DNA from: Phycisphaerae bacterium
GTDB taxonomy: Bacteria > Planctomycetota > Phycisphaerae > UBA1845
Assembly: GCA_022072505.1 (NCBI GenBank)
Contig: JAJVHU010000022.1
Coordinates: 87,603-151,602, forward strand
DNA length: 64,000 nt
Direction of reading: 5' to 3'
Shown here: positions 9,276-44,387 of the stretch, piece after piece
Layout: each line of letters begins with the position of its first letter
Position numbering within the stretch: position 1 is the stretch's first letter
Notes under the pieces: model-generated
What the model was told of the DNA's origin: nothing
Databases searched by the model: none
Seen by the model: the letters and a program-made list of their open reading frames with translations, nothing else
Made by a program: the position numbers and the translations under genes

Positions 9276-9442
9276 CCGAGCCGCGCCCGTCAGGAAGCGG
9301 TTACGCGCCTAAGACGCTGTTTCAAAACCGAGCCGCGCCCGTCAGGAAGCGGTTACGCGCTAAGACGCTGTTTCAAAACCGAGCCGCGCCCGTCAGGAAG
9401 CGTTCTTTTTCCCATCGGCACCGGCGGTTTTGCAACAGCGTC
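9276..9442. repeat. REP-like unit x3 nested in a MITE-like element with 15-bp terminal inverted repeats
   Basis: CCGAGCCGCGCCCGTCAGGAAGCG at 9276, 9328, 9379; GACGCTGTTTCAAAA (9364-9378) and TTTTGCAACAGCGTC (9428-9442) are 14/15 inverted. Confidence 0.75.
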
Positions 9443-40545: not shown

Positions 40546-41378
40546 CTCCCGCGGCGCTTTACACGTTGTATGCGGCGTTCGTGCTGGGGGGCGCGGGCTT
40601 GTATTTTCTTCTGCCGAACCCGGACCGGGGCAAGCCGCTCGCCGGGGCGGCGCTGGGCGCGCTCGGGCTGGCGGCGCTGATCGTCGCGTGGGCGCTGGTC
40701 GGCGACGCGGGAACCGGCGCGGCGTTCTACGCGCTGGGGGGGGTGGCGGTGCTTTGCACGGTCCGGGTGATCACGCACCCGAAGCCGGTGTACTCGGCCT
40801 TGTATTTCGTAGTGACGGTGCTGGCGGTGGCGGCGTTGTGCGTGCTTCAGGGTGCGGAGTTTCTGGCGGCGGCGCTGGTCATCATCTACGCGGGGGCGAT
40901 CCTGGTGACGTACGTTTTCGTCATCATGCTGGCGCAGCAGTCGGGACCGTCGTCGGCGGACCGGCGATCGCGCGAGCCGTTCCTGTCGGTTTGCGCGGGG
41001 TTCGTGACGATGGCGGTGATCACGGTGCATGCGTCGAAGGCGCTGGAGTCGAACGCCGCCGCCGCGGGGCGGGGTCGCGCGGAGGCGAGGTTGGCGTCCG
41101 CGGTTACGGAGGCCGGCGCGCCGGCGGGGATCGCGGAGGATGGAGCAACGCTGTCGGACGACGGGGCGAAGCGGTCCGCGGCGACGCCGGGGAACGCGAT
41201 GGCGCTGGGCGGCGCGGTGATGACGCGGTACATGGCGGCGTTGCAACTGTCGGGGCTGCTGCTGCTGATCGCGATGGTCGGGGCGGTGGCGATGTCGCGG
41301 AAGCGCGTGCCGCAGGAAGGCGCGGTCGCGCCGAGGGCGCCGCTGGGGCAGGCGGGGCGCGAAGTGCCTCCGTATTGA
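40542..41378 (+). CDS. nuoJ: NADH-quinone oxidoreductase subunit J
   Basis: [30 protein letters not shown]. Confidence 0.93.
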
Positions 41379-41420
41379 CGGGCGGGTGGGGGCGGGCGCG
41401 GTTTTGTCGAAAGAGCCACG

Positions 41421-41723
41421 ATGCCGGGAACGACGGAGTACGTGATCCTAGGGGCCTGCCTCTTCGCGCTGGGGATGGCGGGGTTTTTCGCGCGGCGGAA
41501 CCTCATCGTGATGTTCCTCTGCACGGAGATCATGTTTCAGGGCGTGGTGCTGACGGTGGTGGGGTTCTCGAAGTTGTGGGCGAATCTCGACGGGCAGGCG
41601 TACGCGCTGTTCCTGCTGGTGATCGCGGCGGTGGAGGCGGGACTGGCGCTGGGGCTTGTCGTGTTGCTTTACCGTCGCCGGGGGACACTGGACGCGGAAG
41701 CGTGGTCGGTGATGAGAGGATAA
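41421..41723 (+). CDS. nuoK: NADH-quinone oxidoreductase subunit K
   Basis: RRNLIVMFLCTE, IAAVEAGLAL. Confidence 0.95.
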   Translation: MPGTTEYVILGACLFALGMAGFFARRNLIVMFLCTEIMFQGVVLTVVGFSKLWANLDGQAYALFLLVIAAVEAGLALGLVVLLYRRRGTLDAEAWSVMRG

Positions 41724-41830
41724 TTGCGAGGGGCGAACAACGAATGCGCGTGCTTCGGCTGCGGAGAGGCTGTTTCGGGGGTGGGGAGCGCTTCCTTGCT
41801 GCTTCAAACTGTCGGAGGAGAGCGAGAGAA

Positions 41831-42170
41831 GAGCGCTTCCTGACGGGCGCGGCTCGGTTGTGCGGAAGCGCGTGAAGGAAGAGCGCTTCCTGACGGGCGC
41901 GGCTCGGTTGTGCGGAAGCGCGTGAAGGAAGAGCGCTTCCTGACGGGCGCGGCTCGGTTGTGCGGAAGCGCGTGAAGGAAGAACGCTTCCTGACGGGCGC
42001 GGCTCGGTTGTGCGGAAGCGCGTGAAGGAAGAACGCTTCCTGACGGGCGCGGCTCGGTTGTGCGGAAGCGCGTGAAGGAAGAGCGCTTCCTGACGGGCGC
42101 GGCTCGGTTGTGCGGAAGCGCGTGAAGGAAGAGCGCTTCCTGACGGGCGCGGCTCGGTTGTGCGGCAGCG
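41831..42170. repeat. Tandem array of a 50-bp REP-containing unit (6 full + 1 partial)
   Basis: GA(G/A)CGCTTCCTGACGGGCGCGGCTCGGTTGTGCGGAAGCGCGTGAAGGAA; reverse complement of the 9276/16594 core. Confidence 0.97.
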
Positions 42171-42191
42171 TCTTATCAACGACCGTCATAT

Positions 42192-44387
42192 ATGGACCTG
42201 GGTTTACTGAAGATTCTGGGGATCGTCATTCTGCTGGCGCCGCTGGGCGCGGCTGCGGTTTGCGGCGCGCTGGGACCGCGGCGGCTGCGGGATCGAACGC
42301 ACTGGGTGAGCATCCTGGGGGTGGGGTCGGCGGCGGTTGCGGCGCTGGTTCTGCTTCTGCACGTGGCAAGCCACGGGAGCGGAGAGGCTTCGACACACGG
42401 GGGGACGCATGCCGCGGTCGGGGCGACGATTCCGGTGTACGACTGGATTCCGACCGGCGTTGCAGGGGGACGTGCGGCAGGGGCGGTGGATGAGGACGGG
42501 CAGGTCGGAGACCTGTCCTACCAGGACAAGCAGGTCGGAGACCTGCTCCACCAGGACGGGCAGGTCGGAGACCGGTCCTACCAGGACAAGCAGGTCGGAG
42601 ACCTGCTCCACCAGGACAGGCAGGTCGGAGACCTGCCCTACCGATGGTTTCGCGTCGAGTTTCTGGTGGATCCGCTGACGGCGATCATGCTGGCGACGGT
42701 GACGTGCATTGCGCTGCTGATCGTCATCTACTCCCGGGATTACATGCGACATCACGATCACGCGGAGCGCGGGTACGAGCGGTTTTTCGCGTATCTGGCG
42801 CTTTTTGTGTTTTCGATGTGCGCGCTGGTGCTGGGGGGGAACTTCCTGCTGCTGTATCTGGGGTGGGAGGCGGTGGGCCTGTGCAGCTACCTGCTGATCG
42901 GATTCTACTACGGCAAGCCCTCGGCGGCGGCGGCGGCGAAGAAGGCGTTCCTGGTCAACCGGGTGGGGGACTTCGGGTTCGGGCTGGGGATCCTGCTGAT
43001 CTACCTGACGTTCGGCACGCTCAGCTACGCCGACGTGTTCGACATGATCGCGCGGAACGTGGACGCGACGGGGGCGGCGCTGGAGACGTCGAAGCTGACG
43101 ACGATCGCGCTGCTGCTGTTCTGCGGGGCGGCGGGGAAGAGCGCGCAGATTCCGCTGTATGTCTGGCTGCCGGACGCGATGGAGGGTCCGTCGCCGGTGT
43201 CGGCGCTGATTCACGCGGCGACGATGGTGACGGCCGGCGTGTACATGATCGCGCGGTGCGGGGCGATCTTCGTGCATTCTGAAACGGCGATGCTGGCGGT
43301 GGCGGTGGTCGGGGCCTGCACCGCGCTGTTTGCGGCGACGATCGCGCTGGTTCAGACGGACATGAAGCGGATTCTGGCGTACTCGACGATCAGCCAGCTC
43401 GGCTACATGTTCCTTGCGCTGGGGGTGTACGCGGCGGATTCGGCGGTGTTTCACTTGTTTACGCACGCGTTCTTCAAGGCGCTGCTGTTTCTGGGCGCGG
43501 GCAGCGTGATGCACGCGATGGGGGGCGTGATCGACGTGCGGCAGTTCGGCGGTCTGCGCCGGGTGCTGCCGAAGACGTGCGTGCTGGTGGTGATCGGGTC
43601 GCTGGCGCTGGCGGGGTTCCCGATGTTGTCGGGGTTTTTCAGCAAGGACGAGATTCTGCATCACGCGCTGCACGTGCATCCGGTCCTGGGGGCGATGGGG
43701 CTGGCGACGGCGGTGCTGACGGCGTTTTACACGTTCCGGATGGTGTTTCTGGCGTTCGCCGGTCCGCCGCGCGTGCCGGAAGGCGTGCATCCGCATGAGT
43801 CCGGGGGGTGGATGATCGGGCCGATGAGCGTGCTGGCGGTCGGGGCGGTGCTGGTCGGATACCTCGGCGTCGGGTTCACGGGGAAGCCGTTTCACACGTT
43901 TCTTGAGCCGGTCATCGCCAACACGTTCCTCGCGGCCGGACCGAACGCCGCGGGAGCGCATGCGGCGGGCGGCGAGGCGGTCGGTCATGCGGCATCCGGG
44001 GGGTTTCTGGCGGAATACGGGCTGATGATTCTGTCGGGGGGGCTTTCGGTGCTGGCGATCCTGGCGGCGTACGTGGTGTACGCGAAAGCGCCGTGGATGG
44101 CGGCGACGGCGCGGGCGACGTTTCCGCGGGCGCATGACGTGTTGTGGAACAAGTATCGCGTGGATGAAGCGTATGACCGGATGATCGTGCAGCCGCTGCG
44201 GTCGCTGGGGCGGGTTTGCTTTTACCTGGATGAGTACCTGGTTGACGGGATCATCTGGGTCATCTCGTTCGTTCCGCAGGCGCTGGGGTACGGGGCGCGG
44301 GGGGTGCAGCGCGGGGCGCTTCAGGGATACGGGCTGGCGATGGGGGTAGGGCTGGCGATCGTGGTGACGGTGGTGTTGACGTGGTAG
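42192..44387 (+). CDS. nuoL: NADH-quinone oxidoreductase subunit L with in-frame repeat insertion
   Basis: WEAVGLCSYLLIGF, GKSAQIPL..WLPDAMEGP, RILAYSTISQLG. Confidence 0.97.
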   Translation: MDLGLLKILGIVILLAPLGAAAVCGALGPRRLRDRTHWVSILGVGSAAVAALVLLLHVASHGSGEASTHGGTHAAVGATIPVYDWIPTGVAGGRAAGAVDEDGQVGDLSYQDKQVGDLLHQDGQVGDRSYQDKQVGDLLHQDRQVGDLPYRWFRVEFLVDPLTAIMLATVTCIALLIVIYSRDYMRHHDHAERGYERFFAYLALFVFSMCALVLGGNFLLLYLGWEAVGLCSYLLIGFYYGKPSAAAAAKKAFLVNRVGDFGFGLGILLIYLTFGTLSYADVFDMIARNVDATGAALETSKLTTIALLLFCGAAGKSAQIPLYVWLPDAMEGPSPVSALIHAATMVTAGVYMIARCGAIFVHSETAMLAVAVVGACTALFAATIALVQTDMKRILAYSTISQLGYMFLALGVYAADSAVFHLFTHAFFKALLFLGAGSVMHAMGGVIDVRQFGGLRRVLPKTCVLVVIGSLALAGFPMLSGFFSKDEILHHALHVHPVLGAMGLATAVLTAFYTFRMVFLAFAGPPRVPEGVHPHESGGWMIGPMSVLAVGAVLVGYLGVGFTGKPFHTFLEPVIANTFLAAGPNAAGAHAAGGEAVGHAASGGFLAEYGLMILSGGLSVLAILAAYVVYAKAPWMAATARATFPRAHDVLWNKYRVDEAYDRMIVQPLRSLGRVCFYLDEYLVDGIIWVISFVPQALGYGARGVQRGALQGYGLAMGVGLAIVVTVVLTW
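42495..42644 (+). repeat. Five 30-bp palindromic units inside nuoL
   Basis: Each has CAGGTC-GGA-GACCTG (one GACCGG); encodes (D.QVGD...Q) x5. Confidence 0.97.

Follow-up and report, generated by a model that had tools for sequence, protein, structure and literature searches.

The array of palindromic repeats that is read in frame within nuoL, the gene for the antiporter-like subunit L of complex I, in an uncultured Phycisphaerae bacterium (Planctomycetota) very probably consists of five GTAG-type repetitive extragenic palindromes (REPs), that is, non-autonomous hairpins of a REP-associated tyrosine transposase (RAYT; HUH Y1 transposase) system, carried by the NuoL protein as a tolerated passenger loop. 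The stretch of DNA analyzed (64,000 nt, hereafter the window) comprises positions 87603–151602 of contig C7 of the source genome (G000), a metagenome-assembled genome (MAG) of 4.67 Mb in 70 contigs with 65.7% G+C. Contigs of this genome are designated by C-numbers, and positions without a contig number are those of the window.

The host open reading frame (ORF; 42192–44387, + strand) is that of the NuoL/ND5 antiporter-like subunit. The Pfam domains Proton_antipo_N (residues 154–199, E 4e-13) and Proton_antipo_M (residues 217–510, E 1.5e-79) were found in its 731-residue product, which was similar over its full length to the solved NuoL chains 3rko_L (E 1e-101) and 4he8_L (E 2e-114), and nuoK-like and nuoM-like ORFs lie on either side, the gene following nuoK in the nuo operon. 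Tandem Repeats Finder resolved positions 42493–42642 into 5.0 copies of a 30-bp period (score 226) or 2.5 copies of a 60-bp period with 95% matches (score 279). When up to two mismatches were allowed, the 19-mer GGCAGGTCGGAGACCTGCC had five + strand matches (42499, 42529, 42559, 42589 and 42619), and a further match, on the − strand at 42619, had three mismatches; 0.04 matches were expected by chance, and six were reached in 0 of 100 shuffles. The array (residues 102–151) is codon-aligned and stop-free and reads DGQVGDLSYQ / DKQVGDLLHQ / DGQVGDRSYQ / DKQVGDLLHQ / DRQVGDLPYR. A preliminary description of this DNA had already recognized the gene as nuoL and reported five in-frame 30-bp units that add 50 residues without a stop, in an A-B-A-B-C pattern, and these points were confirmed. 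The order is A-B-A′-B-C, with units 2 and 4 identical, units 1 and 3 one base apart, and A and B units different at 5 of 30 positions. The hairpin GCAGGTC-GGA-GACCTGC had been ascribed to every unit; it is perfect in units 2, 4 and 5, and is decaying in unit 1, with one stem mismatch, and in unit 3, with two. Array-specific tryptic peptides expected from the translation include QVGDLLHQDGQVGDR and SYQDK. The unit with the GGA loop is stop-free in all six frames, which is ordinary for a 24-mer at 66% G+C and was given no weight.

Each unit of the array is composed of a 24-nt REP, (G)GCAGGTC-GGA-GACCTGC-CCYACC, and a 6-nt linker, AGGACR. Read on the − strand, the REP presents a GGT(A/G)G tag followed by GCAGGTC, a TCC loop and GACCTGC; its stem is 8 bp long and its loop 3 nt. 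The unpaired GTRG tag is given by the coding-strand tails CTACC and CCACC, which are GGTAG and GGTGG on the other strand. When folded as DNA, the perfect units of the array gave −8.0 to −8.8 kcal/mol and a copy flanking a RAYT gave −10.2 kcal/mol (z about −3.4 to −4). TC-NNN-GA hairpins with a tail at most one mismatch from CCCACC numbered 67, against 7–23 for permuted tails. Perfect-stem copies in the genome numbered 22, at about 12 loci on 11 contigs, in addition to sibling stems, and scrambled-stem controls gave 0–1; by REP standards this is a small family. A palindrome search that allowed two stem mismatches returned 150/191 matches, like some scrambled controls and mostly noise, and only perfect stems and the members of the array were counted.

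Two 19-mers of the nuoL type, in inverted orientation at C11:46520 (−) and C11:47220 (+), bracket a segment that matched NCBIfam NF047646 (REP-associated tyrosine transposase) over positions 4–145 of 146 (E 8e-22; 77.7 bits, with a cut-off of 80). This RAYT contains HUH (HVHWIV) and Tyr (YYVLRNPV) motifs, showed a weak match to E. coli TnpA-REP (4ER8), lies in frame inside a leuS frame of 1326 residues and is, as far as its sequence tells, apparently intact. Because the identical 19-mer flanks it in inverted orientation, the nuoL units can be assigned, as REPs, to a REPtron that this genome itself carries. The hairpin, the GTRG tag, the dispersed copies and the flanked RAYT all point to membership of the GTAG-type REP superfamily. 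The location is not extragenic, which does not exclude membership because the published survey accepts intragenic members (PMC3733652). Neither the CGTC tag of the short Rickettsia palindromic elements (RPEs) nor the length of RPE-1 (~100–150 bp) was found, the units being 24 nt long and GT(A/G)G-tagged. A genome search for intergenic copies of the palindrome had been suggested; such copies were located on C35, C14 and C15, and two further copies flank the RAYT. A CRISPR-like array was ruled out by the absence of spacers, the 30-bp period and the location in a reading frame; no known RNA family was found in window positions 41300–42900 at E up to 1.

The position of the insert in the protein was obtained from an AlphaFold2 (AF2) model of NuoL built on a 29-orthologue alignment (mean predicted local distance difference test score, pLDDT, 77; predicted template modeling score, pTM, 0.79). 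The model placed two beta-hairpin strands between transmembrane helix (TM) 2, which ends at about residue 62, and TM3 (helix 161–184). Residues 90–150 had pLDDT values of 34–41, that is, below 50, and the insert was modeled without structure. When an insert-free orthologue was aligned to E. coli NuoL, the site corresponded to the hairpin turn of the latter, WTWMSVGDFNIGF / PLWTWMSVGDFNIGFNLVLDGLS, at Gly68-Asp69. In the model, the insert is a loop of low confidence that caps the TM2–TM3 beta-hairpin on the periplasmic side, where the preliminary description had put it. In the E. coli membrane-arm structure that Efremov and Sazanov presented in 2011, a beta-hairpin is reportedly found between TM2 and TM3. 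The 50 array residues include 10 Asp, 2 Lys and 3 Arg (net charge about −5), and the other two sense frames of the array give Arg-rich or Cys-rich peptides. Under the positive-inside rule, such an acidic loop would be suited to export.

When NuoL proteins from other genera of the family and order (~25) were compared, the two strands were joined by 5–8 residues, e.g., YDWILHGTGSAFRVE. A REP-derived insert was present at exactly this point in five of the five genomes of the genus (G000 to G004; Table 1), and its length within the genus ranged from 19 to 62 extra residues. It had been stated beforehand that a lack of extragenic copies, together with an insert conserved as an ancient protein repeat, would speak against a palindromic-element origin; the insert was instead absent from NuoL outside the genus. 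Between close variants, insert identity was 36–50%, against 95–97% for the rest of NuoL. With a rate of evolution roughly ten times that of the remaining protein, the insert appears from these comparisons to be a passenger and not a functional module, tolerated rather than domesticated.

The preliminary description had called the insert domesticated. We consider it highly improbable that the acidic loop, or its hairpins as RNA or DNA, is now a functional extension that provides a periplasmic partner contact, tunes the beta-hairpin (betaH) or, by translational pausing, aids membrane insertion. The insert is located in a betaH element, and such elements link the antiporter-like subunits on the periplasmic side and are mechanistically important (PMC7419157). 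Some insert is retained here by every genome of the genus, and of the sense frames only the one in use yields an acidic peptide and not an Arg-rich one, as suits a periplasmic loop. When folded as RNA, the array formed a long quasi-palindrome (−88.6 kcal/mol, z −6.25), which could, speculatively, slow ribosomes, and the stem of unit B carries a compensatory change. However, the difference in identity between the insert and the rest of NuoL is not that of a sequence under purifying selection, two of the genomes, G003 and G004, have a decayed REP, decay being seen in the closest relative too, the length differs between congeners (19–62 extra residues), unrelated enzymes use other frames of this DNA, and the insert is unstructured in the model. 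Retention of some insert is expected anyway, only precise in-frame deletions being viable. No pointers to a function of the insert were found in the sequence, the model and the comparison of relatives.

The same unit was found in long frames with a coding signature (third-codon-position G+C, GC3, 0.77–0.89) and with Pfam domains on both sides, in the genes listed in Table 1. It is translated there as QVGDLP, GRSETCPT, AGQRPAPP, GGAGLRPA and VGQVSDLP, i.e., in at least five of the six frames and in both orientations. Because the unit is read in so many frames across host genes, an ancient protein-level repeat was ruled out; the absence of the insert outside the genus agrees with this. The periods of REP arrays were 27, 30 and 33 bp within frames and 26 bp in intergenic DNA. 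An open frame on C22 (43745–43930), upstream of a GT4 glycosyltransferase domain, contains a head-to-tail run of six REP units with a 33-bp period (QAGQRPAPPVN x 6), as a candidate translated N-terminal extension or 5′ leader. One GlnRS loop (C47:8820–9025), situated between the catalytic domain and the anticodon-binding domain, is a composite cluster of ~70 residues made up of six hairpins in both orientations, with no fewer than three kinds of stem (GCTGGTC, GCAGCTC-like and GCAGGTC). A further repeat of low complexity is in frame in both leuS and glnS, which reads QQATGNRQQAAGSGQQ in leuS (C11:45321–49298) and GERQQATGNRQQEGH in glnS (C47:7537–9813) and suggests another coding-compatible repeat family.

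Comparison of close relatives revealed filled and empty sites at metG as well as at nuoL, which is an indirect sign of mobilization by a RAYT. At metG, no insert is present in G002, G004, G011 and G019; the source genome has three GCAG(G/C)TC REPs there (C31:2060–2140), and G001 and G003 have an unrelated hairpin of the CCCCTC-GGGAGGGG type (CCCCTCCCCTCGGGAGGGGG-type). A single MetRS loop thus seems, on this sequence evidence, to have been colonized independently by different hairpin families. In acnA, 24 inserted residues are absent from outgroups. These filled and empty patterns at metG and acnA argue that permissive loops are colonized repeatedly. RAYT matches numbered 4 in the source genome, 7 in G001, 6 in G003, 1 (weak) in G004 and none in G002, which fits higher REP activity where a RAYT is present, in a tiny sample of five genomes.

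With crude in-house gene calls (72% of the genome coding), 15–17 of the 22 family copies fell in coding frames. Fifteen other hairpin families (7–62 copies each) were scored with the identical gene calls; 14 of them are 88–100% intergenic, and the smallest is intergenic in 5 of 7 copies. The genome contains at least 15 other perfect-hairpin families in all, e.g., CGCGGGCTGAAGCCCGCG (62 copies) and GCCTCCC-GGA-GGGAGGC (39 copies), almost all intergenic, and several of them are probably parts of longer composite repeats. A wider reading of the census, which is tentative and in our judgment rather doubtful, is that this REP/RAYT lineage has moved its niche from intergenic DNA into the permissive loops of essential genes. 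The transposase would then sit in leuS and most of its hairpins in nuoL, glnS, metG, acnA and other genes, the other families being intergenic; purifying selection on the host genes may shield the element, only precise in-frame loss being viable; the same loops may act as landing pads that are re-colonized by different hairpin families; and the nuoL array may be an actively amplifying colony, not a fossil. Among species-representative genomes, more than 114 stretches contain the exact 24-nt unit, GGCAGGTC-NNN-GACCTGCCCCACC; they come from lineages including Bryobacterales (Acidobacteriota), Phycisphaerales (Planctomycetota), Opitutae (Verrucomicrobiota), KSB1 and others. The cross-phylum copies are mostly non-coding (~14 of ~124 clearly in frame, by a rough test that is not comparable with the gene calls of the source genome). 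In one Bryobacteraceae MAG (L092, 4484–4672), the 24-nt unit forms a head-to-tail array with a 33-bp period like that on C22. If the niche-shift reading is true, the unit shared across Acidobacteriota, Verrucomicrobiota and Planctomycetota would be a mark of horizontal spread.

For the nuoL array itself, the favored explanation is as follows. One REP would have entered the codons for the NuoL TM2–TM3 hairpin tip in the ancestor of this Phycisphaerae genus, and in the source lineage alone the single unit, together with 6 nt of flank, would then have been reiterated head to tail. The first reiteration would have given two units that diverged (A and B), and the 60-bp A-B pair would have been duplicated very recently, in each case most likely by replication slippage or unequal recombination between hairpin-forming copies, with RAYT involvement possible. 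As the 10-codon unit is stop-free, the array would be read through to yield a 50-residue acidic disordered loop, which would be tolerated because it projects from the hairpin tip and leaves both strands intact. Hairpin 5 is probably the founder copy of the array, since it adjoins the conserved CGATGGTTTCGC flank common to relatives. Local reiteration is suggested by the uniform AGGACR linkers within the array and by the other arrays of the same REP, which have their own periods. The proposed history agrees with the published account of REP clusters, in which single elements are reiterated in tandem together with adjacent DNA (PMC3733652).

It appears unlikely that the array was instead built by repeated RAYT-mediated insertion, with each REP offering a GT(A/G)G target beside which the next is inserted, as an actively growing colony. 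The five-unit genome does have a RAYT flanked by the identical 19-mer, and of the two closest one-unit relatives G002 has no RAYT match and G004 one weak match; the 5 differences in 30 positions between A and B, and their unlike tags (GTAG and GTGG), would suit an origin from separate master copies; and the same loops are repeatedly colonized by different hairpin families, as at metG. Against this origin, the array linkers are equal in length and nearly identical in sequence, the identity of units 2 and 4 and the single difference between units 1 and 3 are the signature of a 60-bp segmental duplication, the correlation with RAYTs comes from five genomes, two of them incomplete, and RAYTs are not known to build arrays of this head-to-tail kind.

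Several observations weigh against reiteration of a neutral passenger. The compensatory stem change in unit B replaces the outer G-C pair with A-T, and the most intact unit equals the REP that flanks the RAYT; both hint at hairpin maintenance, whether by selection, conversion or fresh insertion, over pure neutral slippage. The A/B divergence is large for a recent duplication and may reflect two REP variants that inserted separately. Translation of the array and incorporation of the protein into complex I are deduced from the DNA. In addition, the 731-residue form with five units was found on one contig of one assembly only in a collection of 15 billion proteins, and the five other members of its 90%-identity protein cluster, from 47 contigs, are all of 691 residues with one unit. 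One pattern scan of JGI metagenome contigs gave no match to the junction between units.

These last two observations, and the nature of the assembly as a MAG of 70 contigs, are what could be expected if the array were an assembly artefact, with one or two real units and an assembler that looped through the repeat or chained strain variants. We regard this as quite improbable. Assemblers usually collapse, rather than expand, tandem repeats; three distinct unit types and the junction CYACC-AGGAC are seen in no single-unit allele; and similar head-to-tail arrays of the same REP exist on C22 (6 x 33 bp), on C35 (4 x 26 bp) and in the Bryobacteraceae MAG L092. At least two copies must be real, because the junction ACC|AGGAC and the three unit variants cannot derive from a single-copy allele; the exact number of five rests on one assembly.

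Table 1. Coordinates of nuoL, its beta-hairpin strands and REP array in the window, with other copies of the REP (contigs of the source genome) and the nuoL inserts of the genus (G000 to G004).
Feature	Location	Strand	Description
nuoL (complex I antiporter-like subunit L)	42192–44387	+	731 aa; host of insert; ORF, Pfam PF00662 and PF00361, PDB relatives
Beta-hairpin strand 1 (TM2–TM3)	42423–42455	+	Residues 78–88 (..TIPVYDWIPTG); AF2/DSSP; aligns to E. coli NuoL PLWTWMSVG
Whole genus-specific insert	42459–42644	+	Residues 90–151, 62 aa, at hairpin tip; orthologue comparison, pLDDT
REP array	42495–42644	+	Five head-to-tail 30-bp units; residues 102–151
REP hairpin 1	42499–42517	−	One stem mismatch; tag GGTAG on − strand at 42517–42523
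REP hairpin 2	42529–42547	−	Perfect 8-bp stem, outer pair A-T replacing G-C; tag GTGG
REP hairpin 3	42559–42577	−	Two stem mismatches, decaying; tag GTAG
REP hairpin 4	42589–42607	−	Identical to hairpin 2
REP hairpin 5	42619–42637	−	Perfect copy of RAYT-flanking 19-mer from leuS; tag GTAG
Beta-hairpin strand 2	42642–42668	+	Residues 151–159 (RWFRVEFLV), then TM3; AF2
REP in 3-hydroxyacyl-CoA dehydrogenase	C2		In frame
REP in aconitase (acnA)	C8		In frame
REP in leuS	C11		In frame
REP in PD40/amidohydrolase protein	C12		In frame
REP in aldehyde dehydrogenase	C13		In frame
REP in metG	C31		In frame
REP in glnS	C47		In frame
Non-coding copies	C35; C14; C15		C35, 4 x 26 bp; C14, upstream of pilin-like gene
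nuoL insert, source genome	G000		Five units
nuoL insert	G001		Sibling REP GCAGCTC-AAA-GAGCTGC (GGGGCAGCTCAAAGAGCTGCCTCACC), decayed GCAGGTC-like remnant before it
nuoL insert	G002		One intact REP (GGGCAGGTCAGAGACCTGCGTCACC)
nuoL insert	G003		Decayed sequence
nuoL insert	G004		One decayed REP

Upstream of the host gene, the nuoK-nuoL gap (468 bp) is mostly filled by 6.9 copies of a 50-bp unit with 98% identity (41828–42170), which recurs on the opposite strand at 9276–9402. The core of this spacer unit, CGCTTCCTGACGGGCGCGGCTCGG (three mismatches allowed), has 427 occurrences at 317 loci genome-wide, ~90% of them intergenic. It is the main dispersed repeat of the genome and has no relation to the nuoL REP.

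Intragenic REPs of this type have been published before, and the case is less new than the preliminary description had assumed. GTAG-tagged REPs were described from eight phyla, Planctomycetes among them (Di Nocera, De Gregorio and Rocco 2013, BMC Genomics 14:522; PMC3733652). Twenty-four GTAG families were published in that survey, the REPs being mostly intergenic, and a GTGG tag was found in most GTAG-20 units of Opitutus terrae (PMC3733652). REPs were also found within known genes, above all in O. terrae, with tRNA synthetases among the hosts, and intragenic REP clusters encoded 43–82 residues (PMC3733652). Among the hosts in the supplement of the survey are an O. terrae NADH:ubiquinone oxidoreductase subunit, with a REP, and the NuoL homologue MrpD of R. 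conorii, with a dimer, and RPE-4 and RPE-6 were assigned to the CGTC superfamily (PMC3733652). The system described here shares with those REPs the GC-rich hairpin, the GT(A/G)G tag, the REP-flanked RAYT, in-frame units and head-to-tail clusters, and both O. terrae and the source genome belong to the PVC group. It differs in its uncultured Phycisphaerae host, in its site at the tip of the NuoL betaH, in the presence of five head-to-tail units in one essential membrane subunit, and in the intragenic location of most of its copies. The phenomenon has been known since 2013, and what is particular here is the host lineage, the betaH site, the five-unit array and the intragenic bias of the family.

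The analogy with RPEs that had been drawn for this array is apt in that both place palindromic DNA in frame within coding genes, and the likeness is one of behavior only. RPEs, described by Ogata et al. in 2000, are said to be in-frame selfish DNA in protein-coding genes, including essential ones, that is tolerated at surface positions. The nuoL REPs are likewise palindromic selfish DNA in frame in coding genes, essential ones among them, and would likewise be tolerated at the protein surface. Unlike RPE-1 (~100–150 bp) and the CGTC-tagged RPE-4 and RPE-6, they are 24 nt long and GT(A/G)G-tagged, belong to another lineage and have a cognate RAYT in the genome. REPtron and REPIN-RAYT systems have reportedly been described by Nunvar (2010), Bertels and Rainey (2011) and Ton-Hoang (2012), with 4ER8 as the structure of E. 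coli TnpA-REP. As in those systems, a RAYT with HUH and Tyr motifs is flanked by inverted REPs, and copies of the same hairpin are dispersed in the genome. REPINs, however, are intergenic inverted doublets, whereas the nuoL array comprises five direct units in a coding frame, and the RAYT is in frame inside leuS and not a free-standing gene.

The nuoL inserts, which span 19–62 residues at the betaH tip within one genus, offer a clean natural experiment: they probe the amount of foreign, disordered sequence that a conserved proton-pumping subunit tolerates. Phycisphaerae are added to the lineages with intragenic REPs, and the hairpins are tied to a RAYT embedded in leuS. For annotation, the finding is a warning that odd low-complexity stretches in housekeeping proteins of the PVC group can be mobile DNA and not protein repeats. 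The family-specific intragenic bias, if upheld with proper gene calls and more genomes, would bear on how selfish elements persist in compact genomes.

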